DNA of 51,743 nt from a virus (IMGVR_UViG_3300021197_001176:1-51743); one strand, 5' to 3'; counted from the stretch's first letter, positions 30,775 to 51,743 are shown. The notes: generated from the sequence alone by a model not told the origin. Program-made: numbers and translations.

Positions 30775-30880
30775 ATTCCTTCTCTCCTTTTCTTTCGATT
30801 ATAAACTTTTTAATTCTTTTTTTTATTTCTGCTTTTCACAAAAAGAATAAAACGATGTACTGCTCTCCATTTTCTAATTA

Positions 30881-30907
30881 ATTTTATTTCTTCTATAGTA
30901 TAGATGA
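30881..30907 (+). repeat. 27-bp sequence duplicated in inverted orientation at 51703-51729
   Basis: ATTTTATTTCTTCTATAGTATAGATGA versus reverse complement ATTTTATTTCTTCTATAGTATGGATGA (1 mismatch). Confidence 0.85.
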
Positions 30908-31008
30908 GAATAATAGTAGTGGGCTTACCAAACATACTATTGAATTAATTAAAGAATTAACAAAACCGCAGTACTGCAAGCCTGTTATTCTTTTTGCGTA
31001 ATTTAGAA

Positions 31009-35457: not shown

Positions 35458-35898
35458 TAGCGTCTAACATTCTATGTAGAATAGTTTTAACGTGCAGTAT
35501 TCTTCTTCTTGTTGCTGCATCCTCAATATCTTCTACAATATCGCCATTGTCTATCATATCTAGCATTGAGCGATATATTTCTCTTTCCATTTCCTTTTCA
35601 TATTCTTTACTCATTTTTGTTATCTCCTTTGTCGGCTCTCGCCATGTTTCTAACTAAAGACTTATCCTTTTTAAGTCTGTCGTTCTTGACTCTTAAGCGT
35701 CTTTTTTTATTTAAGAAAAAACTACTCATTCTATTTCCTCTCCATCATCTAATACATTACCGCATGATACTACATATCTTTTTGCTTTACATCTAGTACA
35801 TTCTACATCTACTTCTGTCAATAATCTATTCTTAGATACAACACTTACTGTATAGACTCTTATTACAGACCATACACAACCGTGATATTCACAATCAT

Positions 35899-36165
35899 TC
35901 ATTCTTCTTCACCTCTTGTTAATTGTGTCCTTCTATACCAATCAATCCACTCTAAATGCTCTATAACTGTTTCATCATCTATACATTGTATGCAACAACA
36001 ATCCCATTCATGGTCGGTGCATTCTATTATGAATACCTTTTCTCCATTTCGTATGCCCCAACCCACATATTTACTTGCTTCTACACGATTATAAATATCT
36101 TCGTATGGATTATTACTTTTACCATAAATAAAACCTTGATTATAATATAAGTCGGGCATCTTCAT
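35899..36165 (-). CDS. Cys-rich hypothetical protein
   Basis: ECTDHEWDCCCIQC; coupled to upstream gene. Confidence 0.5.
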   Translation of the reverse strand: MKMPDLYYNQGFIYGKSNNPYEDIYNRVEASKYVGWGIRNGEKVFIIECTDHEWDCCCIQCIDDETVIEHLEWIDWYRRTQLTRGEEE

Positions 36166-36737
36166 TCTACCAACCCCAACCACCAATGAGGGGTACGCCT
36201 ATCATCCCACGTAGCAAACTCCTTGCTATGATAATAGCGTCTATAAGCCTGTATTGCTTCTTCGCCTCTTGCATGACTGATGATACCTTTTTCATCGTCT
36301 GTTATTACAGCAAAGGGCTTACTTACAGCAGTCATATAATCCGGTCTATACTCATCGGGCATAGCGAGAGCAAAGTGTGTACGATTGCCTTCGGGAATTA
36401 GTTTTACCATAGAACTAAGGTGTCTAATACCTGCCTCACAAAAGTGTATTTTACCGTACTTGTTAGTGTATTCTTTACATATCTCTAAAGCATGGCGTAC
36501 AGTCCAAACGTAATTATCGCTACTGTCGCCTACCCATCGAGTACACGGATGATTATGATAGCCACCCTTGAGAGGCGTACCTTTCTTAGTAAGTGGCATC
36601 ATGTCGGGTGTAGCACCATGTCTGATGACACTACTGCCTAGCATTTGTAGCATTTCTACGCACATTTTAGGTAGGTGTTTATTGCAGTAATCTCTAGCCG
36701 CTAATTCGGGGTTTTCATTTAAGACAAATATATTCAT
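36162..36737 (-). CDS. Pyrimidine-dimer DNA glycosylase (DenV/endonuclease V)-like protein
   Basis: MNIFVL....AA...C.KH..KM..E..QML, HNHPCT.W, AYR.YY...K pattern. Confidence 0.75.
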   Translation of the reverse strand: MNIFVLNENPELAARDYCNKHLPKMCVEMLQMLGSSVIRHGATPDMMPLTKKGTPLKGGYHNHPCTRWVGDSSDNYVWTVRHALEICKEYTNKYGKIHFCEAGIRHLSSMVKLIPEGNRTHFALAMPDEYRPDYMTAVSKPFAVITDDEKGIISHARGEEAIQAYRRYYHSKEFATWDDRRTPHWWLGLVE

Positions 36738-36899
36738 AGTAAATCCCTCACATCATCTATCTCTACAATTCCTCTATAAATAATAGGCTTTGCTTGAATA
36801 CCATCACTATATTCTAGTACGACATAGCACTCATCATCTCCATCACACCATGTCCATTCTAACACTCTCATATTTACTTGTATCGTCTTTTTACTCATA

Positions 36900-37292
36900 T
36901 TATACCCTCTCCTTCATAGTATTTAACTGTGTTGATTGTGCTTCTAAAGCGTCATTGTAGGCATCCCTAAGTATCTTAGGCATTTGAGCAGGTGTCGCTC
37001 GCAAATGCTTTAGTGAAACTAATCTCTTTGCTACCTCATGTACGTTGTTAATATCATATTTGTAAACTCTATTTCCATTAACTATTTTCCAATCTTCTTT
37101 TACCTTAAAGAAAAGTCTATCCTTAGATAACAAAGATGCTAATTCACGATGACTACAAAGACCGATTTTCTTTTTACTTAAATCTGCTTTTTCGTATGCT
37201 TGAAGTAAAGAGGCAGCACTTTGTTTTCCGTTATCTCTAATATATCTATAACAGAAATCAGCCATGATTTTTCTAGGTCGCCTACTACTCAT
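36900..37292 (-). CDS. Winged-helix-like basic protein
   Basis: SHRELASLLSKDRLF; shares YDIN and TPAQM with 25959-26357. Confidence 0.55.
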   Translation of the reverse strand: MSSRRPRKIMADFCYRYIRDNGKQSAASLLQAYEKADLSKKKIGLCSHRELASLLSKDRLFFKVKEDWKIVNGNRVYKYDINNVHEVAKRLVSLKHLRATPAQMPKILRDAYNDALEAQSTQLNTMKERV

Positions 37293-37891
37293 TCTTCTTC
37301 ATCCTCACATTCACATTCAAAACAGGAATAACACCCAATACAAAAACCACTATCACATTCAACATAATCGTGTTCTTGCATTTCATCACCACATTCCCAA
37401 CAATACATTACACTATCTTCATCGTTGTCATTTAATCTGACATGACCTGTAATGTATTCACCTGTTTCTAAGATTGGTTCTTCGGTAAAAATAATACCTA
37501 AATCAGATATTTCTTTTATGTCGTCTTTATCTGAACAAGTGCTGTTATTAGAAATAGCACCATAGGGTACGATAGCCAATAAACCTGCATCAACACCCAT
37601 TTCCACACCTCTAATCCATCCACGCATTTCTTTTACGGTATTACTAAACTTCCAAGTACCATCTCCAAAAGGACTATCCCATACCTCTATATTGTAAATT
37701 ATACCATCTATACCCCACTCAATATAAACGGGATAATCGGGACAACCATTATCTTTATTTTCTTTTTCTCCATCCCATAGGGCTGTACAAAACTCATCCC
37801 ATCTATTATCATCTATGACATAGCAGGGGTCGCCTACATAGTACTTGTATTCGTAATAATTTGGTATATTCATAATATCACTCCGTGTCAA
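37289..37891 (-). CDS. Hypothetical protein with YVGDPCY/VDAG motifs and Cys-rich tail
   Basis: YYVGDPCYVI...GVDAGLLAIVP resembles DUF4241-like proteins; C-terminal Cys cluster. Confidence 0.5.
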   Translation of the reverse strand: MTRSDIMNIPNYYEYKYYVGDPCYVIDDNRWDEFCTALWDGEKENKDNGCPDYPVYIEWGIDGIIYNIEVWDSPFGDGTWKFSNTVKEMRGWIRGVEMGVDAGLLAIVPYGAISNNSTCSDKDDIKEISDLGIIFTEEPILETGEYITGHVRLNDNDEDSVMYCWECGDEMQEHDYVECDSGFCIGCYSCFECECEDEEE

Positions 37892-38183
37892 TGTAAGGCT
37901 CTAATCTAAGTCTATCGCACCAAAGCATTGTAAACAATGTCGCTGTAATTTGTCGGTATATTTCTTCTTCATTGTGTCTAAACCACTTTGAATCAATAAA
38001 TTGTTTAGCCATATCTTCGGGCATACCTATCTCTCTCGCTGCTGTATAAAAAGCAGCCCAAATATTATTTTTAGCGTAATTCTTAGCGTAAGAAATATTA
38101 GTGTTAAAGTCGTGTTCACCGTATAATGTCTCTATCTCTTCATCATACTTGTGTAAGTTAGTTAGTGTATCTTTTAGTGCCAT
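37878..38183 (-). CDS. Hypothetical protein
   Basis: 101-aa ORF, GAGG RBS. Confidence 0.55.
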   Translation of the reverse strand: MALKDTLTNLHKYDEEIETLYGEHDFNTNISYAKNYAKNNIWAAFYTAAREIGMPEDMAKQFIDSKWFRHNEEEIYRQITATLFTMLWCDRLRLEPYIDTE

Positions 38184-38185
38184 AT

Positions 38186-38455
38186 TTATTCCTCTTCTTC
38201 TATTTCATCACCTAGAAAATTAAACTCACAATCAAAGGACACAGTATCTAAAGTCCTAGAATCTACTTTTACGGGTATTATAATATCTTTGTGTGTTTCT
38301 TTATCTTGCATACCGAAGAAATTGAAATCACTTGTTTCATCATTTTTATCAACGACTATAATTCTAAGCAAATGCTTAATATCACCTTCGCCTCTTAATA
38401 TTCTTATTTCTTTTATGCCGTGTCCATTCATACCTATGCTATTCATTTTATTCAT
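38186..38455 (-). CDS. Hypothetical protein
   Basis: Coupled ORF. Confidence 0.55.
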   Translation of the reverse strand: MNKMNSIGMNGHGIKEIRILRGEGDIKHLLRIIVVDKNDETSDFNFFGMQDKETHKDIIIPVKVDSRTLDTVSFDCEFNFLGDEIEEEE

Positions 38456-38679
38456 CTCCTAAATCCTTGATTCCATTCTTCTAAATTATTTTGGATGTTT
38501 ACATTTGCATCCTGCCAATCTTTTAGTATTTGCTCTATGTCCCATGTTGCTCTATTTATTTTATTGTATTCAACATCGTCTACTATATTTGTATCTCTAT
38601 TCAGTTTATGTAGTGCATCCATAGCATTTTCTAATTCTGTTAGGGCTAAGTCTACCATCTCTTCTTCTCTTTTACTCAT
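38452..38679 (-). CDS. Coiled-coil hypothetical protein
   Basis: Preceded by class II promoter motif and GGAGA. Confidence 0.6.
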   Translation of the reverse strand: MSKREEEMVDLALTELENAMDALHKLNRDTNIVDDVEYNKINRATWDIEQILKDWQDANVNIQNNLEEWNQGFRR

Positions 38680-39017
38680 ATATATCTCTCCTTTTCCATC
38701 TTATTTAAGTCTGTTGTTTGTGATTCTAAAGCGTCATCAGCCCATCTACCATCAGCGATTCCATGATACTCACTATTGATTCCGAATATTCTGTTAAACC
38801 AAATTACTTTTACCTCATCAGTATCTCTATCTAAATCACAATAAGCAGCAATCAATTCATTCATAAAATAAAAATAATCTTCTATAAAAAGCGATTTACC
38901 GTCAATCCATTCTACAACCAAGTAAAGTTTGTTTTCTCCGAAATCTAAATTGAAATCTGTATTAGATTCGTTTATCCAATTATAAACTTGATTTGTAATA
39001 ATATTTAGATTAGCCAT
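38676..39017 (-). CDS. Hypothetical protein
   Basis: 113-aa coupled ORF. Confidence 0.55.
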   Translation of the reverse strand: MANLNIITNQVYNWINESNTDFNLDFGENKLYLVVEWIDGKSLFIEDYFYFMNELIAAYCDLDRDTDEVKVIWFNRIFGINSEYHGIADGRWADDALESQTTDLNKMEKERYI

Positions 39018-39226
39018 TATGCGTTCACCTCTTTATCAAACTCTTCTTCATTAAATTGAATAGTTTTACCGTTAATACAAATACCTGTAATATCTGATAA
39101 AACCGCTACCCTATCCCTATCTTTGAAAGCGACTGTAATAGGGTAATCTAACCAATCAAAATCATTTCTATCTTTTTCTCTTAACTCAAAAACATAACCG
39201 ATTATATCATTTAATGTTAAACTCAT
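39017..39226 (-). CDS. Hypothetical protein
   Basis: GAGGTGA RBS. Confidence 0.55.
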   Translation of the reverse strand: MSLTLNDIIGYVFELREKDRNDFDWLDYPITVAFKDRDRVAVLSDITGICINGKTIQFNEEEFDKEVNA

Positions 39227-39636
39227 GCAATCACCTCAGTTTCTTTTACGACAAAAGAAGGGAATATCTGATGTACTCTTTCTAACAATGCTTGACATAC
39301 TCCACAATCTTCATCATACATATCAATTAAATCGGTATTTTCTTCAATTTGTGCTAAGTAATAATTACTTGTTAGATAATTCATAACCATTTTCTTTGTC
39401 AAAGGCGTAATAGGGCCTGTATTATATTCCCAATCGTGAATTGCCTGTTTAGCATCAGATTTGGATATAACTTCTTCACTATAATAATCCGGTCTGCCTA
39501 CATTAGTAATATAACCGATAAGCATGGCTATATCTGTATCATCTAAAACCGATGGTGTCGGTCTTACAGTCATCATTATTCTTCCGTTTTGTCTCTCGCA
39601 TATTTCACCGTGTCTGCCGTGTCTCGTTCTTGTCAT
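39223..39636 (-). CDS. Hypothetical protein
   Basis: Class II promoter and GGAGTGA RBS upstream. Confidence 0.55.
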   Translation of the reverse strand: MTRTRHGRHGEICERQNGRIMMTVRPTPSVLDDTDIAMLIGYITNVGRPDYYSEEVISKSDAKQAIHDWEYNTGPITPLTKKMVMNYLTSNYYLAQIEENTDLIDMYDEDCGVCQALLERVHQIFPSFVVKETEVIA

Positions 39637-39713
39637 ATATCTCACTCCTTTTTCATTCTATTTAACTATACCGTTTGTGATTCCTAAGCGTCATTTTTGT
39701 AGTCAGTCTTAGG

Positions 39714-39745
39714 AGTAAGTAGAGGGTACTACCCCTCTACTTACT
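39714..39745 (-). terminator. Perfect 13-bp hairpin downstream of the DUF932-like gene
   Basis: AGTAAGTAGAGGG-TACTAC-CCCTCTACTTACT. Confidence 0.6.
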
Positions 39746-39757
39746 TTTACGATAATT

Positions 39758-40747
39758 CTAAGCGTACATCTCCGTGATAGTCTCCCATGCGTTTGACTTC
39801 ATTCTTGCACCCGACCCTACGATTGCTGATTCTACTTTGCTATCGCTTGATTTGCCGTCTTTGGTATGACTCCAAGAATGGTCGATGTATTCGGTAGCCA
39901 CATTGAAAGCCGCCCATGCACTATTTTCCATGCCGTTGATAGTATTCGTATCTGATGTTTCTAAGTCTAACAAAGTGGTTAGAGTATTTTGACCTCTAGT
40001 GCCTAATCCGTAAGGGTTGTTAGCATCATAATCTTTGCCGCCCTTCATCATATCTTCATTTTGTTTTAGCCCTAAAGTATCTATGTAGAAATTAATTCTC
40101 TCATCTTGAGACATTTCAACATTGATTAATTGTGTCGCTGTTTCCATGAATGTCTGATTGAGATGGTCTACAATTTTTAGAGCCTCTACCAATTGTGCAA
40201 TCCTATCTTCTTGTCGTGCTGAATGTCTGATAGTTAGAGCATTTTTATTGATACCCATTTTATTCAATAGACTTTGCATATATGTAAATTGATTACTGCA
40301 AGCAATTCTTACATTTGAGGGTAAAATACGGATGCCGCCCGAACCGTCATTTGTGTTCATCAGCATTATGTACTGCTCTACATCATCCATCCCACCGATA
40401 GAGAATCCTTCCGGCATCTTAAAAGATGCTACGATTTTTCTACCATTATCTACAAGTCCAATCCTATCCCAAATTACTTTTTCTCTTTTTACCAAATCGT
40501 CAGATATGTTTAACAGTCTTTCATTTTGCATAACTTTGTATGTGCCTTTTACGACACCAAAAGTCTCATCGGTATCTTCTCTAAATGTCCTAAATTGGTT
40601 AGGTATAACCTTACCATCTTTAGTATAGATAGATTCCATACCTATATTGAAATCGGCATTTGCATTCTGCAATACCTCTTTCACAGTCGTTCCTTGTGCT
40701 TCTTTTCCAAATCGGGCATAAGCCCCTAGCATATTTCTCATACTCAT
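39758..40747 (-). CDS. DUF932 (TIGR03299-like) phage/plasmid protein
   Basis: FGVV...Y.VMQNE, NTNDGSG, RIACSNQ, IRHS, AWAAFNVATEYIDH. Confidence 0.85.
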   Translation of the reverse strand: MSMRNMLGAYARFGKEAQGTTVKEVLQNANADFNIGMESIYTKDGKVIPNQFRTFREDTDETFGVVKGTYKVMQNERLLNISDDLVKREKVIWDRIGLVDNGRKIVASFKMPEGFSIGGMDDVEQYIMLMNTNDGSGGIRILPSNVRIACSNQFTYMQSLLNKMGINKNALTIRHSARQEDRIAQLVEALKIVDHLNQTFMETATQLINVEMSQDERINFYIDTLGLKQNEDMMKGGKDYDANNPYGLGTRGQNTLTTLLDLETSDTNTINGMENSAWAAFNVATEYIDHSWSHTKDGKSSDSKVESAIVGSGARMKSNAWETITEMYA

Positions 40748-40748
40748 T

Positions 40749-41081
40749 TTATTTATCTCCTTTTTTATTTATTTTTTCGTTTTCTTCTGTTGGTGTGGGT
40801 ACTTCTCCCACAAAACTAACTAATTTCTCATTAGTTATAAGTGCTTCCTTCTCGCTTCTTAAGCGTCTAATCTCACTTTGTCTTACAGCCATATTCATAA
40901 TTGCTCTCGCTTCTTCTTTTCTTTCAGATTCATTATACTTATCTTTAGCATAATTACTTTTAGCCCTAATCAAAGGTGCGTTTGCATCGTACTTACTAAC
41001 TATTGTTTTCATCGTAGCATTTTTATGAGTATTGACTGTAAAGTCAAAATCTTGTAATGCTTCTATCGGTGTTTTTCTCAT
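40749..41081 (-). CDS. Hypothetical protein
   Basis: GGAGA RBS. Confidence 0.55.
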   Translation of the reverse strand: MRKTPIEALQDFDFTVNTHKNATMKTIVSKYDANAPLIRAKSNYAKDKYNESERKEEARAIMNMAVRQSEIRRLRSEKEALITNEKLVSFVGEVPTPTEENEKINKKGDK

Positions 41082-41222
41082 ATTAATTTCTCCTAACGTA
41101 ATCTATCACTTTTTTCATTAATTCCTTCCACTCTATAATATGCTTATCATCTATCCTCGATGTGTATTTTATCATATTAATTTCTCCTTTTTCTTTTTAC
41201 TTAAATCTATTCTTCTTGACTC

Positions 41223-41462
41223 TTAAGCGTCATCACTATTTTCTTGAACGTGATTTTCTAATTCGTACCAATTGATATTACCCAAATCAATGAAATCTGA
41301 AAAGAAATTACCGTAAGCAATAGATTCTTGAATTGCTTCGACTTCTTGTTCTAGTGTCTCTTTTATGAAATCTAAATCTGCTTTTCCTCTTGGCTCAAAA
41401 TGTAAATTAATAAGCCATGTTTCTCTATTTGTCCATCCGTTGTAATCCGTTCTATTCGTCAT
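41223..41462 (-). CDS. Conserved-type phage hypothetical protein (YNGWTN.ETW motif)
   Basis: YNGWTNRETW N-terminus and INW.EL C-terminus; class II promoter upstream. Confidence 0.65.
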   Translation of the reverse strand: MTNRTDYNGWTNRETWLINLHFEPRGKADLDFIKETLEQEVEAIQESIAYGNFFSDFIDLGNINWYELENHVQENSDDA

Positions 41463-41493
41463 ATTTCTAACTCCTTCTTCATCTTATTTAAGT

Positions 41494-41754
41494 CTACTCT
41501 TCTTGAGTCTTAAGCGTATCTTGGTCGAATGTATCTTTTGAATATAGAGACTTTAAGTGTGCCGTGTATATTCCATCAATTTCATTTAATTCTTCTATTA
41601 ATCTAATGTATATTGCTGATACATTTCCTTCACCCATTAAATCCCTAGTCCCGTTTTCAAGGTTTTCTAGGTCTTGAAAGAATTGCTCTTTCATATCTTT
41701 TTGGTGTTTCATCATTTCTTCGTTCTTAAACGGTATTAGTGCTTCTTGGCTCAT
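41494..41754 (-). CDS. Hypothetical protein
   Basis: Class II promoter upstream. Confidence 0.55.
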   Translation of the reverse strand: MSQEALIPFKNEEMMKHQKDMKEQFFQDLENLENGTRDLMGEGNVSAIYIRLIEELNEIDGIYTAHLKSLYSKDTFDQDTLKTQEE

Positions 41755-42186
41755 AAACTAAACTATATGTGCTAGTATTTAAGCCTGTCGTTTGTGAGTC
41801 TTAAGCGTCATTTTTAGTTTTGTAGGCAGTTTTATTTTTCGGATTTCATAATGTTTTGTAGGCATCTTTAGTGATTTTAACTGCTTATAAACTACGCAAA
41901 AAATGTTTTGTAGTCAGTCTTACACTTATCTAGGAGTGCCTACAAAACTTTATCTTAAAAATAAAAAAAGTGGGATGCACCCGAAATGGATGCACCCCGA
42001 AAGGTATTTTGACCTTAAAAGAAAGTCCTCTTCCGAACCTAATGCCGGAAGGCTTTCTTTTCTTTTTCGTTAAATGTAAAAGCAGTTTCCGAAAGTTTTC
42101 GCCTACTCGTCAATAGGTTATTCACAATCTCGCATCATACTTAGGATGCAGCCCGAAATCAACGCTCAACGGGCGGGAGTGGGATT

Positions 42187-42309
42187 TTAGAATTGATTTG
42201 CATTCAATCCTAAGTCGTCAATCATTTGTCTAGCCCAAAGGGTTAGAGCCGGATTTGAGTTTCTCAAATCTTTTCGATTCTGTAATGTGGGGCGTAAATC
42301 TTTAGCCAT
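42187..42309 (-). CDS. Micro-protein (40 aa, MAKDLRPTL...QMIDDLGLNANQF)
   Basis: Start abuts upstream stop (TAAATG). Confidence 0.5.
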   Translation of the reverse strand: MAKDLRPTLQNRKDLRNSNPALTLWARQMIDDLGLNANQF

Positions 42310-42381
42310 TTATTTTCGCCCCCAATATAATTTACCTGCTTTCGTGTCGTCAATCATTTGCTGTAATTCTTCGGTTGTCAT
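42310..42381 (-). CDS. Micro-protein (23 aa, MTTEELQQMIDDTKAGKLYWGRK)
   Basis: Class II promoter plus AGGAGA RBS. Confidence 0.55.
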   Translation of the reverse strand: MTTEELQQMIDDTKAGKLYWGRK

Positions 42382-42454
42382 ATTCTGTTTCTCCTACAAT
42401 TTATTCTTATTCTTTATCTTATTTAATACACTCGTTTGTGATTCTTAAGCGTCT

Positions 42455-42652
42455 TTAATACATCTCCTTAATCGATAATTGGGAATTACCGGATGAATCT
42501 TCAACACTAGTAAAATCTATTGCGACAGTAGCATTTCTACTAAGTCTTTTTACTCCTAGATTTTCTCTCTCATTTTTCTTAAATCTTTTTATTTGCTTCT
42601 CTAAGTCATGGATATTCCATACCCCATATATCTCTTTTTTGTTTTGGCTCAT
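42455..42652 (-). CDS. Hypothetical protein
   Basis: Class II promoter plus AGGAGA RBS. Confidence 0.6.
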   Translation of the reverse strand: MSQNKKEIYGVWNIHDLEKQIKRFKKNERENLGVKRLSRNATVAIDFTSVEDSSGNSQLSIKEMY

Positions 42653-42699
42653 ATTTAATTCTCCTTTTTCATTTTATTTAATATACTCGTTCTTGATTC

Positions 42700-42858
42700 T
42701 TAAGCGTCTTTTAGGTCGTATTCTAACTCATTTAATTTCTCTCTTAGAATTGAGTATAGACTCACTCTTTGAGTCCAATTTAATTTGTTTTCCAAATCAC
42801 CTAATTCCTTTTGAAATGTGTATTCTAAGTTTTCTGCTGCTGTAATATCTGATACCAT
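42700..42858 (-). CDS. Micro-protein (52 aa, MVSDITAAEN...YDLKDA), absent from ORF track
   Basis: Class II promoter plus AGGAGA RBS; stop codon lies within the next promoter motif. Confidence 0.6.
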   Translation of the reverse strand: MVSDITAAENLEYTFQKELGDLENKLNWTQRVSLYSILREKLNELEYDLKDA

Positions 42859-42905
42859 ATTTATTTCTCCTTTCTCATTTTATTTAATACCCTCGATTCT
42901 GATTC

Positions 42906-43490
42906 TTAAGCGTTGCAGTTTTCACAAATAATCCTCGCTTTGAAAAAATGTTCTTCGGGTAATTTGTATTTTATATCATCGGCATGGATTTTTGAAGCCG
43001 ATATTACAGGACTGATTTTTTGACATGATGAACAAACTCCATCATATTTTAAGAATTGAAAATGTGGGACTGATTTTACTTTTACCGCATTTTCTAATTC
43101 CCAATTTGCTACGGTTCTTTTGAGTGGGATATTTTCTTTTCGGGCAATTTTAACAATTTTTATTTTATCCTGCATAGCATCGAAAATATATTCTGATTTT
43201 GAAAGAGGATTATAATTATTGAAATCGTGATTATTGATTGCATTGATTTTGATTTTTGACATTCTCGATTGAGAACAATTCGGTAAATGCTGACGGATTG
43301 GACAGCCGCATTTTCTAGTACCTTTGAAATTAGGATTTTTTGAACCGATTCTATTTTGAATCCAAGTTTCTGATTTTTTACCTGACCCGCCTTTTTTACC
43401 TCTACTAGAAGCGACAGGACATTTTTCACCTTCGGGGTGTATTCTACCTTTACAGGCTTTATATCTGCATGGTTTTCTGACTTTACTCAT
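42906..43490 (-). CDS. Basic Cys/His-rich DNA-binding protein with degenerate HNH-like C-terminus
   Basis: C..C...H.....C, GSKNPNFKG, CGC...H...C, CSSC...IHADDI...ICENCN. Confidence 0.55.
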   Translation of the reverse strand: MSKVRKPCRYKACKGRIHPEGEKCPVASSRGKKGGSGKKSETWIQNRIGSKNPNFKGTRKCGCPIRQHLPNCSQSRMSKIKINAINNHDFNNYNPLSKSEYIFDAMQDKIKIVKIARKENIPLKRTVANWELENAVKVKSVPHFQFLKYDGVCSSCQKISPVISASKIHADDIKYKLPEEHFFKARIICENCNA

Positions 43491-44308
43491 AAATTATAAT
43501 ATATTCTCATAGTATATATACTTAACCCATTCCTGCATCATTGGTTTTGTAGGCGGCTTTTTAGTGGTTTTTTTGAGATATTCAATGTTTTGTAGTCGTA
43601 CATACCGAATTATTATTTTTCAGAAAAAAGAAATTATTTTTATTTCATATAAAAGTTTTGTAGTCAGCGTTATATTTTCTTAAGACCGCCTACAAAACAT
43701 TACTTAGTGCATATATTACACTTGATGAGTTTTTAGCACTAACTTACATTCACAACACCGGAATTGTTTTGTAGGCAGTAGTTTTGTAGGCACTTTTTGA
43801 GTGGTTTACTTTTTGCACCGCCGCAGTACAGCGTTTTTTTTGTTTTGTAGGCAGCAAAAATAATCTCCGAATAGGTGGGTCTTGACAGACCTAATTTGAA
43901 GTGCCTACAAAATGTTTTGTAGGCGAAAATCGCATATATCATTTTGCCTATACCAGATGGGCTGAAGGTATATATACTTAACTATATAAATACCTCAATG
44001 TTTTGTAGGCAGCAAAAACGGTAAAAAATCTGCATTAAGTGTAAAAAGTAAACTAAGTGTAAAAAAAACACTAGATAACAAAAATAAACTTGTTTTGTAG
44101 GCAACGCTAAAAAGTGCTAAGACTGACTACAAAACGCCTACCGGCAGGTTTATATAGTCAAACATAGACGGAAGGTTGTGCGAAACACCCAAAATATTTC
44201 GACTGATGAATGTTTTGTAGGCACCACTAAACACAAACAAAAACCCCCGCCTAAAGGCGGGTAAAAAAGACCACCTACAAAACGTTTTGTAGGCAGTATA
44301 AAATAAAT

Positions 44309-44336
44309 AAAAAAAAGGTGGGCTTTCGCCCTAACC
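44309..44336 (-). terminator. Hairpin (GGGC-GAAA-GCCC) plus T-run
   Basis: Directly at the stop of 44331-44501. Confidence 0.7.
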
Positions 44337-44501
44337 TTCTTCATCCAACATTTTTTGGATTTCTTCATATATTTTGTCTCTTTTTTCTTCGGGTAGTTGA
44401 CAAAAATCACAAACTACCTCTTCGGGTTCGGGTTCGCCCCAAACATCTACATTCGTTCCACATTCAAAGCATTGTTCAACCATATGTACGCCCCACGCCA
44501 T
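44331..44501 (-). CDS. Zinc-finger micro-protein (56 aa), absent from ORF track
   Basis: CFEC...CDFC; class I promoter 19 nt upstream, hairpin and T-run downstream. Confidence 0.7.
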   Translation of the reverse strand: MAWGVHMVEQCFECGTNVDVWGEPEPEEVVCDFCQLPEEKRDKIYEEIQKMLDEEG

Positions 44502-44659
44502 GATTAACCCTACGTTTAGAGGTATATATACTTATCTATGGAGTCTATCTAATGTTTTGTAGGCAGCCTTAGCATAATCTAAAGACGACTACAAAATATG
44601 TTTTGTAGTCGGGAACGTTGTAGAACAACCTTGGTGCCTACAAAATAATACAATTAAAT

Positions 44660-44695
44660 AAAAAAAAGGGATAAGACGGTCGCCCGAAGGCGACC
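44660..44695 (-). terminator. C(UUCG)G hairpin plus T-run
   Basis: Minus strand GGTCGCC-TTCG-GGCGACC then a T-run, after 44707-45003. Confidence 0.75.
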
Positions 44696-44706
44696 CCCTA
44701 ATCCGT

Positions 44707-45003
44707 TTAAGGTAGAATGTGATTTTCAATCCATTCTGCTGCTTTGCTATTATTCCAATCGTGTTCATCTTTGGCCTCATCATAAAAATGAGATAGCATA
44801 TTCTTTAGAGTTGTGATTCTTACTCTAGTAGATTTATTTTCAAAATCTTCAATGCAATCTCCCGCATCAATAGAATCTAACATAATTGCATAAATCTCCA
44901 TTTCTTCAGTCGTTTCTTTTACCATATTTTTTCTTGTAGTCATTACTTTTTTCACCCCCGTTTTTTTCAGCCCTTTGGGCAAATTGTCCTCAGCATACAC
45001 CAT
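44707..45003 (-). CDS. Hypothetical cassette protein
   Basis: 98-aa ORF bounded by 42-bp elements and a terminator. Confidence 0.6.
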   Translation of the reverse strand: MVYAEDNLPKGLKKTGVKKVMTTRKNMVKETTEEMEIYAIMLDSIDAGDCIEDFENKSTRVRITTLKNMLSHFYDEAKDEHDWNNSKAAEWIENHILP

Positions 45004-45102
45004 ATATATACCTGCCGGTACAGTACCCTCAATGTTTTGTAGGCACCCTTAACAGAATCTAAAGGCGACTACAAAATATTTTGTAGGCAGCCGCCGCAGG
45101 AT

Positions 45103-45165
45103 AAAAAAAGTTGCCCCGCACCCACGAATAAAAGGTGCGAGGTCTTGGGCTTTCGTTGTTATTTT
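45103..45165 (-). terminator. Conserved 3' leader plus hairpin plus T-run, copy 1
   Basis: Stem CCTCGCACC/GGTGCGGGG; shares 28 bp with copy 2. Confidence 0.7.
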
Positions 45166-45167
45166 AT

Positions 45168-45515
45168 TTATCTAAGAATTGGGATTTCGCTACCTGTTGA
45201 AAAATCCCAAATTGCTTTCTGATTGTTTCTTTTGGCTACTCTCAAAGCGACCTCGATGTTTGAATAAATTGCTATTGGGTCAAAAACAATTTTTGAATTA
45301 TTAGGATTATTTTTTGACAATCCTAATTTTTCAGTCCACACACCAACATAATTTGCTTTTGGGTATTTTTCAAGTACGGCCAAAAACATAAATAATGTGT
45401 GGTCTTGTGAGTGAGTTGCGAAAGCATCTCCCTTTTCTAAACCAACCGCATATCCTGCGGTTGGAGTTGCTGGCATTCCATTACGGTAGTATGTCCCGTC
45501 TGCTATTTGTCGCAT
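45168..45515 (-). CDS. Cassette protein, weak resemblance to phage SAM-lyase-like folds
   Basis: GYAVG, YVGVW, A.RVAKRNNQKAIWDF; class I promoter 19 nt upstream. Confidence 0.6.
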   Translation of the reverse strand: MRQIADGTYYRNGMPATPTAGYAVGLEKGDAFATHSQDHTLFMFLAVLEKYPKANYVGVWTEKLGLSKNNPNNSKIVFDPIAIYSNIEVALRVAKRNNQKAIWDFSTGSEIPILR

Positions 45516-45748
45516 ATATCGAGGACCGTATGCCGGTATATATACTTATTGTTTTTGTTGGTGTAATGTTTTGTAGTCAGTCAAAATAAAAAATAAAGAA
45601 GCCTACAAATATATTTTGTAGGCACCACAAAAAAAGTGCCTCACACCCCACCTATTTACGAATAAATAAAGATGCCTACAAAATTGCTAATATGTTTTGT
45701 AGTCAGACTTAGACAAGTGTAAAGGTGCCTACAAAACTAAGTGGTAAG

Positions 45749-45820
45749 AAAAAAAATGCCCCGACACACAATGCCCGAATAAATGCGTGTGTCGAGGACT
45801 TGGGCTTTCGTTGTTATTTT
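45749..45820 (-). terminator. Conserved 3' leader plus hairpin plus T-run, copy 2
   Basis: Stem CCTCGACACA/TGTGTCGGGG. Confidence 0.7.
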
Positions 45821-45828
45821 TTCAGTTT

Positions 45829-45948
45829 TTAATCCTTGTGCAATTCTTCAAATAGTTCCGCTATTTCATTAAAATGCTCATCTAATATTTTTTGCATTTC
45901 TTTTATTTCATTTTCTAATTTATGCATTTCATCTTTTAGGTTTCCCAT
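45829..45948 (-). CDS. Acidic coiled-coil micro-protein (39 aa), absent from ORF track
   Basis: MGNLKDEMHKLENEIKEMQKILDEHFNEIAELFEELHKD; class I promoter 20 nt upstream. Confidence 0.7.
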   Translation of the reverse strand: MGNLKDEMHKLENEIKEMQKILDEHFNEIAELFEELHKD

Positions 45949-46169
45949 GTATCTTCATAGAAGGGTACGGTATATATACTTATTGTTTAATTATTTTATT
46001 GTTTTGTAGTCAGTTTTGTAGTCAGTTTTTCTTTTTGTTTTTTAATTTTGTAGGCAGACCTAGACTTTGTTAAAGATGACTACAAAACAAACCCCCAATA
46101 CCTAATGTTTTGTAGGCAGCGTTAGATAATTACAAGAGTGCCTACAAAACTTAACGTCATAAAGAATAG

Positions 46170-46196
46170 ACCCCCCTCTAAAGAGGGGGGTTTTTT
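46170..46196. terminator. GC-rich hairpin ACCCCCCTC-TAAA-GAGGGGGGT
   Basis: Just past the stop of 46207-46995; the T-run is on the plus-strand side. Confidence 0.6.
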
Positions 46197-46206
46197 GTAG
46201 GCACCC

Positions 46207-46995
46207 TTAATTCATAGATGCCCTCTCTCTAAAGATTATAGTTAAGTTTCTAGCACTTCTCTTTTCTCTTGGTTGTCCTTTGTGTGTGAAGTTCCATTCA
46301 TATTCGGTATATTTTGACCCGAATGTCGGTGCTGTATCTACTACCGGAAATCCTTTTGCATCTAATCCGATAATGTGGCCGTCTACTCCGTATCTGAATC
46401 CTACGGGAATATATTTTTGTCTATCATCAGAATCTAGTGTCATCCATAGAGCCTCGGCAATTTTCTGGAATGAATTGGTTTTGATTCCTCTACCAAATGA
46501 CATCATTGAATCATCAATTTTATCTTGTAATAATTTAATCATGTCGTGCATCTCTTTAGTAGTGTAGTTATAATCAATTTCTTGTTTCATAGGGTAAACT
46601 AAATCCCCGTTTTCGTATTTCTTGAACCAATCAATACTTGAGTAAGATGAAGGCTCTTTTCTTACGTTTTGTGTTAATGCTTTTGTAAATCCTTGAGGGA
46701 CTGAGCAGTTCTTTGAATCACAATGTGGACACTGACTTCTGAAATCTGATTTGGTAGGGCTTCTCAATTCAATTCCGAATGAATGTACTGAGTCTTTCAA
46801 TGCTTCTGATGTATCAAAGTAAGTGTGTCCGTATTTGCTGTTGGTAATTATATCAAAGTGATTCCATACAGCATTAACACATACATTGATGTTGCGGTTT
46901 TTAGCATTGTTTGAACCATCAATATATGATTGACGAGAACCTTCGTTCTCTTCGTTTAAGAGATAATTTGTATATTTGTTATCCATTTTATTCAC
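46207..46995 (-). CDS. Hypothetical protein with CPHC motif
   Basis: 262 aa; AGGTGA RBS near start. Confidence 0.65.
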   Translation of the reverse strand: MNKMDNKYTNYLLNEENEGSRQSYIDGSNNAKNRNINVCVNAVWNHFDIITNSKYGHTYFDTSEALKDSVHSFGIELRSPTKSDFRSQCPHCDSKNCSVPQGFTKALTQNVRKEPSSYSSIDWFKKYENGDLVYPMKQEIDYNYTTKEMHDMIKLLQDKIDDSMMSFGRGIKTNSFQKIAEALWMTLDSDDRQKYIPVGFRYGVDGHIIGLDAKGFPVVDTAPTFGSKYTEYEWNFTHKGQPREKRSARNLTIIFRERASMN

Positions 46996-47006
46996 CTTCT
47001 AAAAAG

Positions 47007-47038
47007 AGATTGAAGAGGGCCTAAGCCCTCAACAATCT
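47007..47038 (-). terminator. Intergenic hairpin with internal loop
   Basis: AGATTG-aa-GAGGGC-ctaa-GCCCTC-aa-CAATCT. Confidence 0.55.
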
Positions 47039-47973
47039 TATTCCTCTACTCCCGATACTACATTCATAATATCTGTTATTGGTCTGTTTTCTTTGTTGAT
47101 TTGTGCTAGATTTGATTCAGTCATATGAATCGCTGCAAATCCGATTGAAGGGAAGAAGGACGCTTTTAATTCGCCGCCACAAGTAATCTTTTCAGTATTC
47201 TTGATTACTAGTCCACTATCTGAAACTATCATTTTAGGTGATTTATGACATTGACGAGGTGCTACGAAAGGCACTCCATCTATGTCATATCCTACTATTG
47301 TTCTACTGTTTTTCTCATGCTTCGGTGTCATTTTTACAGCACAATTATTACAGCCACAATCTAAAGAACGAACACCATCTACACTTCTTGAGGTCGCTGA
47401 ATATGTAAACTTGTTATCCTTTTTACCTCGGTTATTTAGTGGGTTCATACCTACAATTTCCCATTCATATCCATTGAATGAAGCAATTGGCATTTCATAG
47501 ATTCTTGATTCAAACTTAGTAGTTATATTTGATACAAAATAACCATGCTCAAGATTCCAAAGAGATGTTTCTTCATGGCATACTGAGCCTCTCAATTCAT
47601 TTTTTCTGATTGTACAAACAGGCTTGTTATTTGTTTTATCGGAAAAGTGTGCATCATTGTGATTACATTTTGTGCAAACATATCGCATTTCAGTAATGTA
47701 ATTAGTCGCTGATATTTGAGGACTAGATTTATTCTCTAATGATTGAGAATGTCTAATGTGGTTTACTAAAGTCATTTTGAAAGATGATTTGAAAGGTACT
47801 ATTTCACCATCCCAAACATTATTTTCAACATCAGTAAATTGAATCGAGTTCAATCTCTTGATGATAAATCTAGGACTTGATAAAATCTTAGATTTATCTT
47901 TAACTTGAGTAAAGCGGAATGCTTCACCAACCTCAAGTGATATACTATCGTGTATATCTAACGTATTCGTCAT
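47038..47973 (-). CDS. Cys-rich hypothetical protein
   Basis: CTKC, CGCNNC; start reassigned to MTNTLD after AGGAGA. Confidence 0.6.
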   Translation of the reverse strand: MTNTLDIHDSISLEVGEAFRFTQVKDKSKILSSPRFIIKRLNSIQFTDVENNVWDGEIVPFKSSFKMTLVNHIRHSQSLENKSSPQISATNYITEMRYVCTKCNHNDAHFSDKTNNKPVCTIRKNELRGSVCHEETSLWNLEHGYFVSNITTKFESRIYEMPIASFNGYEWEIVGMNPLNNRGKKDNKFTYSATSRSVDGVRSLDCGCNNCAVKMTPKHEKNSRTIVGYDIDGVPFVAPRQCHKSPKMIVSDSGLVIKNTEKITCGGELKASFFPSIGFAAIHMTESNLAQINKENRPITDIMNVVSGVEE

Positions 47974-48187
47974 ACTATCGTCATCTCCTATGTGCAAAAA
48001 CTCACCCATGCTACGCATGGGTGTTGTCAGGTACTTAATGGTTATGACGTGGCATTCTCTCGCAAAAAGTGCGTTTTTAGGCTAATTTGCGGGTTTTTAG
48101 CACTTTCCAAAGGTTTTTCACTATGCCATACTTTTGCCCGCCAACCACCGCTTACAATTTTTTATAATTTTTTTGAAAAATATTTTT

Positions 48188-48466
48188 TTATATTTTTTTC
48201 CACTCAAGTTTGTGTGCGCCGGGTTTCCTACGCCATTTTACTTGGTTAGTACGTTTCAAGTACGTTGGTACTATATTCCTAGAAAGCGGTGTCCAATAAT
48301 TACTTACATACTTATTTGCTTTCCACGCAATTTCTTCTGACGTTTTCCAATCGTCTAAATATCCTTCATCCATTATTTTATCAATAGATTCCTTATAGAC
48401 AATCTTTTTGCTTTTAGGGCCATGCCTTCTTACTTCCGGGTTTTGTTTGTTGTATCGTTTCTTCAC
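48188..48466 (-). CDS. Basic winged-helix-like protein downstream of terminase
   Basis: 92 aa, WKTSEEIA...; abuts terminase stop. Confidence 0.55.
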   Translation of the reverse strand: MKKRYNKQNPEVRRHGPKSKKIVYKESIDKIMDEGYLDDWKTSEEIAWKANKYVSNYWTPLSRNIVPTYLKRTNQVKWRRKPGAHKLEWKKI

Positions 48467-49981
48467 TTACCATCCTCTCCTATCTATTATTTTTCCACCA
48501 AGACCTTCATGTTTGCTTATTCGTTGCATTTGTGTTTCACCACCTAACCAATCGCCGCCTTTCATGGTTTTCATAATTACCGGCATATCGGGTGTCCTGT
48601 ATGTGAATTGGTCTATGGCGTGTGCAAATGCCATAACAGTATCGTTATGTCTGCCTAAATCTACAATTAACCCATCACGCCACGCATGAGTCTCTAATTC
48701 CTGTAATAATATACCTACCTTTGTTCTAGTAGTGTCATTACCAAATGGGAATATTATCATTTCTCTTTCAAACCAAACTCTAAGCCTATTTAGTAATCCT
48801 TGCTTTAATGTCCTATTACTAACCTTACTAGCCCTGTAATCTACTACCGCACCTTTTTGTGCAAGCAAACTTTCGTACATTTGTTGGAAACCTACATCCT
48901 CAACCGCTATCGGACAATTACCGTAGCGTTTAGTCCACTCTATTAACATATCTGCTTGTTTATCCGGTGGAAAGTCATTTCTTCTCCACATATCTACAAA
49001 ATGGATATAACCGTCATCATCTTGTTTCAAACAAACCATAACGCTGTAATCTTGCCCTAATCCATGTGCAGGGTCAAAACCTATAACATATCTGTACCCA
49101 TCCATCTTATCAGTCTGTAATATAGCATCCATATCCATATTTTTTCTAATTAGCATTCTAGGAAACACACTAGCCTCATCATCTACTACTTTACACAAAT
49201 ATTCCTGTACAAAAGATAATTCACCCATAGCCTCTTTTTGTTCTAGTAAAAACTTAATAGGTCTATATTCGGCCCATAACTCTACAGGCTTAATATTTAG
49301 TGGGTCAGCCTTATGTTCATCCCAATTAGGAATAGCAGACCATGTACCCGATTTCCATGTTTTATTCTCTAGCATTTCTGTATGGTACAAATCATTCATA
49401 CTCATAGGTGTACCTACTACGAAAATTGCTGTACCGGGACTCAACATAGGTGTAATTTTCTTTCTAAACCATTGTGCTATGTTATTCCAATTCATATCCC
49501 CCATATCATCAAGAACGTCATCAAATGCAATAGCCGCAGGGTGTTCTCCACGAATAGCCGCACCAACAGAAGTAGCACGAATCCATGCACCGTTAGTAAA
49601 ACGGATTTCTAGTTTGTTGCCCCTCTTAGGGTCGAGATACCTAGATAATTGAGGGTGTCTTTTCATATCTTCTCTTATTTCTTCTAACCTTCTGACTGCA
49701 AGGTCTTTACTAGCAGAAAACAACCAACAAGTAAAAGGTTTATTACGCCATTGTTCAAAAAGAGCCATGTGTAATAGTTTTACCCTTAAAGTAGTAGATT
49801 TACTGTGGTCCCTCGGTGCAATAATACAAACACGGTGTACAGAAGAATTGTCGTGATTATCTCCGTACATATCTACCCACTCACCTATATGTTCTCCCCA
49901 AGTATAACCTAACCACTTGTAGAAATACTCTACGTCATTACGACTACGTTCCATAGAAAAATTAGTATTGAATGTAGCCAT
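48467..49981 (-). CDS. terL: Terminase large subunit
   Basis: Walker A APRDHSKST, IRG, Walker B IAFDD, VVGTP, F.QEY, nuclease GFDPA...QDYS...HNDTVMA. Confidence 0.92.
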   Translation of the reverse strand: MATFNTNFSMERSRNDVEYFYKWLGYTWGEHIGEWVDMYGDNHDNSSVHRVCIIAPRDHSKSTTLRVKLLHMALFEQWRNKPFTCWLFSASKDLAVRRLEEIREDMKRHPQLSRYLDPKRGNKLEIRFTNGAWIRATSVGAAIRGEHPAAIAFDDVLDDMGDMNWNNIAQWFRKKITPMLSPGTAIFVVGTPMSMNDLYHTEMLENKTWKSGTWSAIPNWDEHKADPLNIKPVELWAEYRPIKFLLEQKEAMGELSFVQEYLCKVVDDEASVFPRMLIRKNMDMDAILQTDKMDGYRYVIGFDPAHGLGQDYSVMVCLKQDDDGYIHFVDMWRRNDFPPDKQADMLIEWTKRYGNCPIAVEDVGFQQMYESLLAQKGAVVDYRASKVSNRTLKQGLLNRLRVWFEREMIIFPFGNDTTRTKVGILLQELETHAWRDGLIVDLGRHNDTVMAFAHAIDQFTYRTPDMPVIMKTMKGGDWLGGETQMQRISKHEGLGGKIIDRRGW

Positions 49982-51532: not shown

Positions 51533-51743
51533 TGTACTGTCCTGCTCATATCGTCTTATAATACTTATTTATTTTGTTCTTTTCGTGTTTAACAAAATTA
51601 AAAAAACGCTTTACTAAAAGCCTATGTTTGAATTAATTTATTCTTTCTTTAGTATGGGTAGGCGGCGGCCCTGTCTATCTATTACTCTTTTAGTTATTAA
51701 CTTCATCCATACTATAGAAGAAATAAAATAAATAGAAAGAATT

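Follow-up and report, generated by a model that had tools for sequence, protein, structure and literature searches.

An exchangeable, likely terminal block of small gene cassettes in magrovirus-like viruses carries lineage-specific motifs and a candidate cognate DNA-binding protein

The window, a stretch of 51,743 nucleotides (IMGVR_UViG_3300021197_001176:1-51743), belongs by gene content to a marine, archaeal, magrovirus-like virus. Its genes resemble the group C set in the available text of PMC5434244: a family B polymerase alongside an archaeal-type clamp loader, a GroEL-type chaperonin, and a terminase with an adjacent phosphoesterase. A thermosome identity for the chaperonin was dropped. 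This gene set, together with TATA promoters, bears out the archaeal virus proposed in an earlier, sequence-only reading of the same DNA. A search of GenBank phage DNA gave no match to the window, and a terminase search at ≥60% identity gave none either. Magroviruses have no cultured host, and their genomes have been assembled as circles with unmapped ends. We found no account of gene control in the available portions of the magrovirus literature.

Four small cassette genes (A, C, D, and F) and the gene for protein Z (ORF 42906-43490) lie on the minus strand, where the sequence-only reading had placed a cassette array (Table 1). All four cassette ORFs are followed by hairpin and T-run terminators (-18 to -23.6 kcal/mol), and the low gene density claimed for the region is real, as these ORFs fill 936 of 2716 bases (34%). 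Six TATATATA boxes were found (43513, 43969, 44523, 45003, 45537, and 45971), the first at Z, which shares the cassette promoter as had been said. A rule of one promoter per ORF holds for A, C, D, and F; it fails at 43969, where the promoter drives no conserved ORF. The ORF of D exists, but the ATG called for 98 amino acids overlaps the TATA box that had been described as aberrant. Its start is thus probably M21 (44943), giving 78 amino acids; the homologue in locus L042 has 76. The arrangement recurs in public runs X16 and X18, whose contigs each show 0-3 differences, so the array is not an assembly artefact. The payload ORFs have no family match other than weak, sub-threshold ones, and none of the 13 homologues of cassette C carries a functional name. 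The cassette ORFs show pN/pS values of 0.12-0.44.

Table 1. Features of the exchangeable block and its surroundings, in window coordinates.
Feature	Position	Strand	Remarks
Exchangeable block, likely direct terminal repeat	43500..48139	-	edges approximate, left edge ± ~700 bp; depth step and homology limits
Phased A-tract + GTGGT(A/T)GGC block, candidate terminus/packaging signal	48139..48200	-	conserved, at module edge
X1, first gene of block, 323 aa from likely start (ORF opens 48018)	47038..48009	-	cysteine motifs; candidate cognate DNA-binding protein
X2, 262 aa, fast-evolving family	46207..46995	-	in some dialects only
Half-site + hairpin closing X2	46156..46203	-	sequence
42-bp dyad E1	46108..46149	.	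46-nt insertion in L006/L016
42-bp dyad E2	46046..46087	.	exact pattern match
Slot 1: two half-sites + TATA promoter (45971-45978)	45949..46024	-	sequence
Cassette A, 39 aa	45829..45948	-	pN/pS 0.43 on one pair
Hairpin/T-run terminator 3' of A (in relatives 3' of cassette B)	45749..45815	-	sequence
42-bp dyad E3	45695..45736	.	exact pattern match
Degenerate dyad E4; one arm is promoter-upstream site of C	45569..45610	.	sequence
TATA promoter 45537-45544 + cassette C, 115 aa (ORF 45168-45515)	45168..45544	-	pN/pS 0.17
Terminator of C, half-site, dyad E5 (45035-45076)	45035..45135	-	sequence
TATA box 45003-45010 + cassette D (98 aa called, probably 78 aa from 44943)	44707..45010	-	missing in L001, L006, L014
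Terminator of D, half-sites, dyad E6 (44555-44596)	44555..44700	-	E6 and E5 spacers differ by two bases
TATA promoter 44523-44530, cassette F 56 aa (44331-44501), terminator	44309..44530	-	missing in L006, L011, X19/X20 strain
42-bp dyad E7	44093..44134	.	exact pattern match
Conserved ORF-less stretch: TATA promoter 43969-43976, many half-sites, dyad E8 (43656-43697)	43524..44080	-	conservation
Second box family	43805-43840, 44039-44080	-	within ORF-less stretch; also in motif-less lineages
TATA promoter 43513-43520 + Z, 194 aa, cysteine-rich, basic	42906..43520	-	in motif-bearing and motif-less lineages
Outlying half-sites + dyad E9 (41906-41947), among downstream early genes	41818..41947	.	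sequence

The repeating unit is smaller than the 42-bp element first described. Eight exact 42-bp dyads (TTTTGTAGKCR-N20-YGMCTACAAAA) are present, against 0 in 100 shuffles, and with a degenerate ninth, eight of nine fall inside the 43490..46210 array. The basic unit, however, is the oriented 11-bp word TGMCTACAAAA, the half-site of the dyad, many copies of which stand alone; 33 of the window's 38 word cores lie within 43491-46210. Across 14 dialects of the word in related viruses (one locus each), 29 of the 38 promoter-like starts carry a motif on the same strand either 23-25 or 6-8 nt upstream of TATA, against a mean of 0.7 and a maximum of 5 under circular shifts. The distance windows were picked from the same data, and four of the 14 dialects gave no match. 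The filler between motif and TATA is fixed in length and variable in sequence. A site also begins 19-23 nt past the start of the T-run in 15 of 17 terminator-like runs, and the majority of word copies lie away from promoters. Where the dyad arms vary, they pair no more often than expected; for K/M the paired fraction is 0.18 against 0.52 expected among 34 distinct dyads. A hairpin or cruciform, an attC-type single-strand hairpin, and a CRISPR-like repeat were rejected on this lack of covariation and on arms usually mismatched at K/M.

Cassette content is exchangeable among relatives, as had been proposed. All five complete arrays compared (the window, L001, L006, L011, and L014) differ by gain, loss, or replacement, and a strain in RNA runs X19/X20 supplies a sixth arrangement. 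Loci matching only a single dyad and lacking similarity to the window (L013, L015, L017, L021, and L026) were dropped, L027-L029 are the contig of the window itself, and duplicates or near-duplicates (L016/L018, L019, L020, L022, and L023-L025) were not counted separately. In place of cassette A, relatives have an unrelated ORF of 41, 44, or 129 amino acids, or nothing. Content varies at the repeats, but the order of shared cassettes never changes. In runs X19/X20 the contig is flat over coding and non-coding DNA alike, and the gaps at cassette F reflect deletions in the strain.

Such exchange invites the integron and pdif analogy of the sequence-only reading, in which the dyads would be 17-8-17 crossover or nicking sites for a site-specific, possibly loxP-like, recombinase that moves cassettes. 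The dyads do have a fixed length and an 8-bp spacer flanked by nearly invariant TA; their arms differ by just 0.019 between orthologues, the dyads on either side of D have near-identical spacers, an insertion in one case falls precisely where arm and spacer meet, and the loss of D would fit a crossover inside a dyad. However, the spacers drift at 0.178, as do four-fold sites (0.17-0.35), most joints lie outside dyads (at promoters, terminator T-runs, and single half-sites), and the fixed dyad is peculiar to the window's clade among 28 loci. The tyrosine recombinase family PF00589 was found in 0 of 9 related viral records (four ≥90% complete; 14/14 controls positive), with about three-quarters of the window virus's own genome available, and the predicted X1 structure is β-rich. 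We therefore consider a dedicated recombinase very improbable, and with the fixed order the analogy is not supported. The joint positions, the neutral spacer drift, and the PF00589 result instead point to recombination like that of promoter/stem-loop (PeSL) cassettes in T4-type phages, the other analogue suggested. In RB49 and phi1, promoter and stem-loop repeats flank orphan genes, and insertions, deletions, and replacements at the repeats likewise set relatives apart, according to the portion of PMC2839356 available. The promoters there are σ70-like, unlike the archaeal leaderless TATA promoters here, which come with a lineage-specific word predicted to bind protein and sit in one probably terminal block. 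The cassette architecture itself thus has precedents.

Among magrovirus relatives, at least 14 dialects of the word occupy the same terminase-to-Z block. Whole blocks have been exchanged on near-identical backbones: across dialects the terminase is 95-99% and the adjacent 92-amino-acid gene 96-99% identical, and X1 is 23-24% identical or undetectable. X1 is present in 10/10 motif-bearing complete blocks and in 0/15 motif-less ones. Within a terminase-anchored set, all 30 motif-rich loci have an ORF at the X1 position, and the nine loci without such an ORF are motif-poor. The terminase tree forces at least four joint changes of X1 and motif. Because its presence and sequence track the motif, X1 is likely the cognate protein that reads the dialect word. 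The terminase and the 92-amino-acid gene were rejected as specificity factors, both being 95-99% identical across dialects. Lineage-specific dialects, the X1 candidate, and the whole-block swap are additions to the sequence-only reading.

Members of the X1 family have 250-390 amino acids and cysteine motifs; distant ones share 8-24% identity, so that grouping them as one family depends in part on position, size, and cysteine pattern. In 17 of 25 loci, among them the window, the promoter of X1 is free of motifs within 100 nt, and eight X1 genes have an upstream motif. The X1 sequence matched nothing in Pfam, PHROG, NCBIfam, or the PDB. Its structure model (pLDDT 52.5, β-rich) matched nothing in the PDB, BFVD, or VIA-wide searches, and leads in the Atlas were weak (≤0.85). 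No DNA-binding fold was recognised in X1, but the lack of matches does not establish a new fold.

Contig depth suggests that the block, about 4.6 kb, is a direct terminal repeat. Depth is about 1.4-2 times higher over ~43.5-48.2 kb, with a step in five of six DNA runs, one of them weak. Inside versus outside 43625-47999, the ratio is 2.12 in run X17, 1.54 in X12, and 1.42 in X15, which overlaps its own flanks; depth is 8.5 against 3-5.4 in X16 and 5.3-6.3 against 2.8-4.6 in X18, and X8 is uninformative (1.27), all values being per contig in runs chosen for holding the stretch. Homology to viruses of other dialects stops at ~48139 and returns at Z, and the depth step coincides with a conserved boundary block. 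Its strict pattern, an A-tract with GTGGT(A/T)GGC, occurs at 38 of 64 terminase loci and once in the window; looser variants are visible. A position inside a terminal repeat fits early expression of the array. In the accessible text of PMC12282133, SPO1-like phages carry host-takeover modules in long terminal repeats that are expressed earliest, and these are similarly small genes without assigned role in a multi-kilobase repeat. There the text describes no self-encoded, swappable regulator/site pair, and here the repeat is deduced from depth.

It is possible, if rather improbable, that X1 serves genome handling, coating the terminal repeat for duplication, cutting, protection, replication start, or entry, with promoter spacing secondary. 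In the window, G001, and G003 the motif is restricted to the block, and in G002 almost so. The block coincides with the depth step, adjoins the terminase genes and the boundary signal, and includes a promoter without an ORF along with a second set of conserved boxes. However, the boundary signal and the second boxes persist in lineages that have neither X1 nor an array, so that X1 and the array are dispensable for the essential functions, and the fixed motif-to-TATA geometry across dialects would go unexplained.

Another candidate binder is Z, or a host protein, with X1 merely co-traveling in the block. Z is basic, cysteine-rich, and dialect-variable (88-96% identity within a dialect, 59% between), and the motif stands at its promoter. 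Yet Z is retained in 15 motif-less blocks, on which ground it was rejected, dialects switch on near-identical backbones, and the exact dyad pattern does not occur in a genome collection of 185,579 species. We regard this reading as very unlikely. Z itself gave no Foldseek or PDB sequence match (model pTM 0.33); Atlas leads pointed to HNH/NUMOD clusters, all below 0.9.

Our preferred reading, to which we assign a probability of about 0.5, is a terminal cassette row whose content varies among relatives, with the word as the docking site of X1 and X1 turning the promoters on early. The terminal repeat would enter the cell first, and X1 would be made from its motif-free promoter by host TBP, TFB, and RNA polymerase. 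Bound 23-25 (or 6-8) nt upstream of TATA, X1 could then aid assembly of the initiation complex on the leaderless promoters of the cassettes and Z; activators binding directly upstream of BRE are known in archaea (PMC5937170, in the part available). At sites about 20 nt beyond the T-run of a terminator, X1 may form a roadblock that insulates cassettes. The 42-bp dyad would consist of a back-to-back pair of 17-bp extended sites. Payloads, which would act on the host, would be added and removed by ordinary homologous or microhomology recombination between repeated parts. Against activation, any gene in an exchanged block co-varies, and motif-less lineages keep similar TATA cassettes, so promoters can work without X1.

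The main rival to X1 as activator is X1 as repressor, which we consider unlikely but the least so of the alternatives. X1 would shut the terminal cassettes after a first burst and block elongation at non-promoter sites, and dialects would be immunity groups among co-infecting relatives. This would account for many oriented sites, mostly off promoters and some ~20 nt past terminators, for promoters that exist without X1, and for rapid divergence of protein and sites as escape from exclusion. There are precedents in the available texts: a shut-off of this kind has been proposed for Aca8 of SIRV2 (PMC11065993), and stoperators offer a model for the block to elongation (PMC6550527). Stoperators of Cluster A mycobacteriophages, too, are numerous, asymmetric, oriented with transcription, and mostly off promoters, with a consensus that diverges along with the viral protein; they are genome-wide, as described there, and serve lysogeny and immunity, whereas the sites here are confined to 4-9 kb. 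Upstream of the core promoter, these sites also stand at a set distance and in a set orientation, as expected for contact with the initiation complex. No integrase (PF00589) or sign of lysogeny was found, and X1 mostly lacks its own site, whereas all aca8 genes have theirs.

The word and its promoters also have parallels among archaeal viruses. In crenarchaeal viruses, as far as the text of PMC11065993 at hand goes, virus-specific sequences surround the TATA(/BRE) promoters of small, single early and anti-defence genes near the genome ends, and Aca8 of SIRV2 is the proposed viral regulator. Unlike that case, dozens of further copies of the word here lie away from promoters, following terminators and within dyads; X1 is a larger, cysteine-motif protein, mostly not autoregulated; and regulator and sites are swapped as one block. 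The crenarchaeal set includes anti-defence genes, whereas the host-takeover or anti-defence role that the sequence-only reading gave the payloads here is hypothetical. Halovirus HF2 has two promoter classes in its class I/II intergenic repeats, units of ~60 bp with a conserved upstream motif (PMC8707807, in part). Unlike the cassettes here, those repeats are conserved throughout the genus, as are their positions, and the available account describes neither a cassette array nor a dialect-specific cognate gene.

A bolder proposal, which we hold only tentatively and think rather unlikely, is that the exchangeable terminal repeat is a lock and key. Encoding a new DNA-binding protein that evolves very fast, together with dozens of private sites for it, the repeat would carry the magrovirus early programme, and a swap would confer a new regulatory identity. 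For lytic archaeal viruses this would amount to an incompatibility system, and in the window's clade the dyads may also be DNA-capturing break points. If so, co-infecting relatives would be unable to drive, or able to silence, one another's early genes.

The candidate terminal repeat and the conserved boundary signal would place the physical genome end. With at least 14 naturally paired words, the X1 family would offer a ready set for studying the co-evolution of regulator and site, and X1/word pairs are possibly orthogonal archaeal transcription switches. The word, TATA, and an ATG at 28-30 nt together form a rule that may list candidate early effectors of viruses of abundant ocean archaea, much as regulatory sequences led to anti-defence genes in crenarchaeal viruses.

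The cassette array proposed by the sequence-only reading is present. Its four ORFs, each followed by a hairpin/T-run terminator, were found together with six TATA boxes and nine dyads (E1-E9, 42-bp back-to-back pairs of an 11-bp half-site, TGMCTACAAAA), and the arrangement is the same in the public DNA runs X16 and X18. The dyads follow the consensus TTTTGTAGKCR-N3-YTA-N8-TAR-N3-YGMCTACAAAA and do not occur in 100 shuffles of the window. The outer 11 bp, hereafter the word, is also found singly, mostly oriented along transcription, and 33 of the window's 38 word cores fall in 43491-46210. A second box family recurs upstream of Z, the 194-aa gene after the array, in motif-bearing and motif-less lineages alike; these boxes are candidate origin or Z sites.

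The virus encodes a family B polymerase, an archaeal-type clamp loader, a GroEL-type chaperonin and a terminase adjoined by a phosphoesterase. Five small basic proteins resemble winged-helix paralogues when judged by eye, and gave no match in a PHROG search. From the gene set, rather than from a tree, we infer a match with the group C magroviruses as outlined in PMC5434244. Near-complete relatives measure 61-72 kb, and therefore about a quarter of this virus's genome is absent from the window. Outside the array, a second promoter class (GACGCTTAAGA, AT box, AAGGAG, then ATG) precedes small early genes that are likewise variable among relatives, and the related record G004 carries a variant, GACGCTTGCGA. 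The sequence GCAGTACARCGTTTT stands at a few intergenic sites, also in G001-G004, and is possibly a third promoter class; its recurrence accounts for 51743-to-43822 joints in run contigs.

Coordinates of features in the window and in related loci
Feature	Locus	Coordinates	Remark
Terminase	window	48467-49981
X1, first gene of block	window	47038-48009 (-)
X2	window	46207-46995 (-)
X2	L042	8964-9599
Neighbour gene	L072	10020-11497
Cassette A ORF	window	45829-45948
Cassette C ORF	window	45168-45515
Cassette D ORF	window	44707-45003
Cassette F ORF	window	44331-44501
Cassette F start	window	44472-44501	compensating pair of one-base indels vs L001 and L014
Z	window	42906-43490 (-)
Second box family, TTTACTTTTTRCAC and relatives	window	43805-43840, 44039-44080	inverted pair 234 nt apart around ORF-less promoter
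E1 dyad	window	46108-46149
E1 orthologue	L006; L016	10045-10098; 2576-2629	46-nt insertion exactly at arm/spacer border
Exact match to first 21 nt of insertion	window	20415-20395	E 1.5e-5; final codons and stop of 314-aa ATPase-like gene
Dyad	L014	10652-10730	left 31 nt tandemly duplicated
E1-E2-like dyad pair	L001	8957-9061	present again upstream of cassette B
Array of >10 cassettes	L062	12900-20000	very regular, transcribed toward terminase
DUF932 and DUF3846 genes	L075; L087; L072	8773-10416; 10816-11772; 13095-13430	in-block payloads of other dialects
DUF932	window	39758-40747
Second promoter class	window	35692-42913
GCAGTACARCGTTTT	window	43823, 30849	also just past window end in L004-L006
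Similar segments	window	51600-51743, 30807-30915	inverted orientation
Small basic proteins	window	25959-26357, 30349-30774, 32690-32962, 36900-37292, 48188-48466

Cassette content varies among close relatives. These were drawn from pattern and protein scans after removal of duplicate loci, copies of the window's contig and five single hits unrelated to it. In transcription order the window's array reads A-C-D-F, and those of relatives (with further cassettes B, G and I) read A-B-C-D in L011, G-B-C-F in L001, B-C in L006 and I-B-C-F in L014; an ORF-less promoter and then Z follow each of these five complete arrays. The partial array of L004 has a different first ORF, and the strain seen in RNA runs X19/X20 lacks F and has A replaced by 224 other letters. 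The predicted interchangeability of cassettes holds: content is gained, lost and replaced across aligned arrays. Order is constant wherever cassettes are common to arrays. Across A, B, C, D and F, pN/pS is 0.12-0.44 (2-5 strains each).

The joints of these changes resemble those of the promoter and stem-loop cassettes (PeSLs) of T4-type phages. Loss of F, and of D and F together, joins at terminator T-runs; loss of A joins in a promoter, loss of B at a short AT-rich overlap, and first-slot replacements at half-sites. The suggested PeSL analogy is borne out by these positions.

The dyad is probably not a crossover site. Site-specific recombination at dyads would be consistent with a core fixed as TA-N8-TA, near-identical spacers either side of cassette D, and the single templated-looking insertion at the arm/spacer border of a dyad. 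However, a crossover in the dyad fits only the loss of D among array joints, and a search for PF00589 found it in none of nine related records, four of them at least 90% complete. Over 83 orthologous dyad pairs, divergence is 0.019 in the arms, 0.137 in the inner hexamers and 0.178 in the spacers, against 0.17 (Z) and 0.35 (C) at four-fold sites. We therefore set aside the integron and pdif analogies, and consider such recombination highly improbable. The E1 insertion itself, a single event, has the look of break repair from a template. A hairpin role for the dyad was also rejected: among 34 distinct dyads, which are related rather than independent copies, pairing at variable positions is no higher than expected and K/M positions are paired in 0.18, against 0.52 expected.

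Whole blocks are exchanged between otherwise near-identical viruses. A terminase scan (80 of 104 loci retained) revealed, in many relatives, a gene-poor block that follows the terminase and a 92-aa gene and ends at Z. It holds as many as 77 copies of a word that is built around TACAAA and differs by lineage. At least 14 versions of this word, or dialects, occur across the relatives (for example ACCCTACAAAATA, AGACTACAAAA, TATGCTACAAA, CCGTTACAAAAC, AAAACTACAAAAC, CTACTACAAAT and CTTACCAACAAAT); the fixed 42-bp spacing is seen in the window's clade only, among 28 loci. In G001, G003 and the window, the word occurs nowhere outside the block; G002 has a few strays. Different blocks sit on viruses whose terminases are 95-99% and 92-aa genes 96-99% identical, with DUF932 94% identical where seen. 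Homology between viruses of different dialects stops at about 48139, directly after a phased A-tract block. Searched for with a strict pattern, this A-tract block turns up in 38 of 64 loci, and the window has one copy. The L137/L138 pair has the same limits of homology. In L062, the motif lies immediately upstream of TATA; as a model, that locus is cleaner than the window. In L127 and L129, the terminase-to-Z block lacks X1 and holds 10-11 copies of another repeat, AAATCCAAATC.

X1, a protein of 250-390 aa with cysteine motifs, accompanies the word. In 49 loci, the sequence extends 1450 nt or more beyond the terminase. The 30 motif-rich ones all carry an X1-type ORF; of the other 19, nine without such an ORF are motif-poor, eight are too short for an array and two are distant. 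A Z-anchored scan gave 31 loci (eight of them contigs seen before), of which 27 were analysed and 25 have a complete block: the array is present in 10/10 with an X1 profile hit and in 0/15 without. The terminase tree forces at least four joint changes of X1 and word, and X1 groups, on a quick tree, track dialect and not terminase. The profile finds 36 representatives among 1.84 billion proteins, with no match to known families and folds; distant members are 8-24% identical, and iterative search did not link them all. These patterns make X1 a candidate cognate binder of the word. All parts of an exchanged block co-vary, and Z too differs between dialects, yet Z persists where the word is absent; we regard a different binder as very unlikely. 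X2 and an L072 neighbour gene have Cys/His/Asp motifs that we take to resemble papain-like or transglutaminase-like enzymes, with no match in Pfam or NCBIfam.

The word keeps fixed distances from promoters and terminators. Across 14 dialects (one locus each), a TATA-like box 28-30 nt ahead of an ATG was taken as a promoter-like start. Of 38 such starts, 29 have a same-strand word ending 23-25 or 6-8 nt upstream of TATA, compared with a mean of 0.7 and a maximum of 5 in 2000 shifts; these spacings were picked from the same data, and four dialects have none. Four arrays from the window's clade contain 17 terminator-like runs, and in 15 of them a site starts 19-23 nt past the beginning of the T-run. 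Filler between elements varies in sequence and is constant in length. Upstream of X1 itself, the word is absent from the 100 nt in 17 of 25 loci. X1 might act at these sites as a repressor, Aca8- or stoperator-like, which we hold to be rather unlikely.

Read depth strongly hints that the block is a direct terminal repeat. According to 10.1101/619684, short-read assembly collapses terminal repeats, which reach 6.1 kb in marine viruses. In six DNA runs from four studies, depth inside 43625-47999 relative to outside is 2.12 (X17), 1.54 (X12), 1.42 (X15, ranges overlapping) and 1.27 (X8, a single contig spanning both edges), and is 8.5 vs 3-5.4 in X16 and 5.3-6.3 vs 2.8-4.6 in X18. The right edge of the step coincides with the boundary block and the left lies within 42.8-43.6 kb. 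The step falls short of proof: depths are contig means, runs were selected for containing 41.5-48.5 kb, and the window may itself derive from X8. RNA runs X19/X20 cover coding and non-coding DNA alike. Alternatively, the array may serve genome-end handling, a reading we find improbable.

We give about even odds (roughly 0.5) to a joint reading in which the terminal repeat would enter the cell first and X1 would be produced from a bare promoter. X1 docking upstream of TATA would then activate the cassette promoters and Z, its docking past terminators would insulate cassettes, and the payload would be edited by ordinary recombination between repeated parts. By analogy, payloads may serve host takeover or anti-defence. 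The array observed by the sequence-only reading stands, and its interpretation stands in part.

The block is not described in PMC12999244, a magrovirus paper, nor in the magrovirus literature searched, mainly open-access main texts (PMC11706807, PMC10160649 and the parts of PMC5434244 covered). The nearest systems are the regulatory sequences of terminal early genes in crenarchaeal viruses (PMC11065993), PeSLs (PMC2839356), whose described pattern of joints and content is that of the cassettes in the window's clade, HF2 intergenic repeats (PMC8707807), stoperators (PMC6550527) and takeover genes in terminal repeats (PMC12282133). To these the locus adds a probable terminal repeat, a terminator-to-site spacing, and the swapping of a whole block, word and protein together, on near-identical backbones, with the 42-bp dyad reduced to a clade-specific arrangement.
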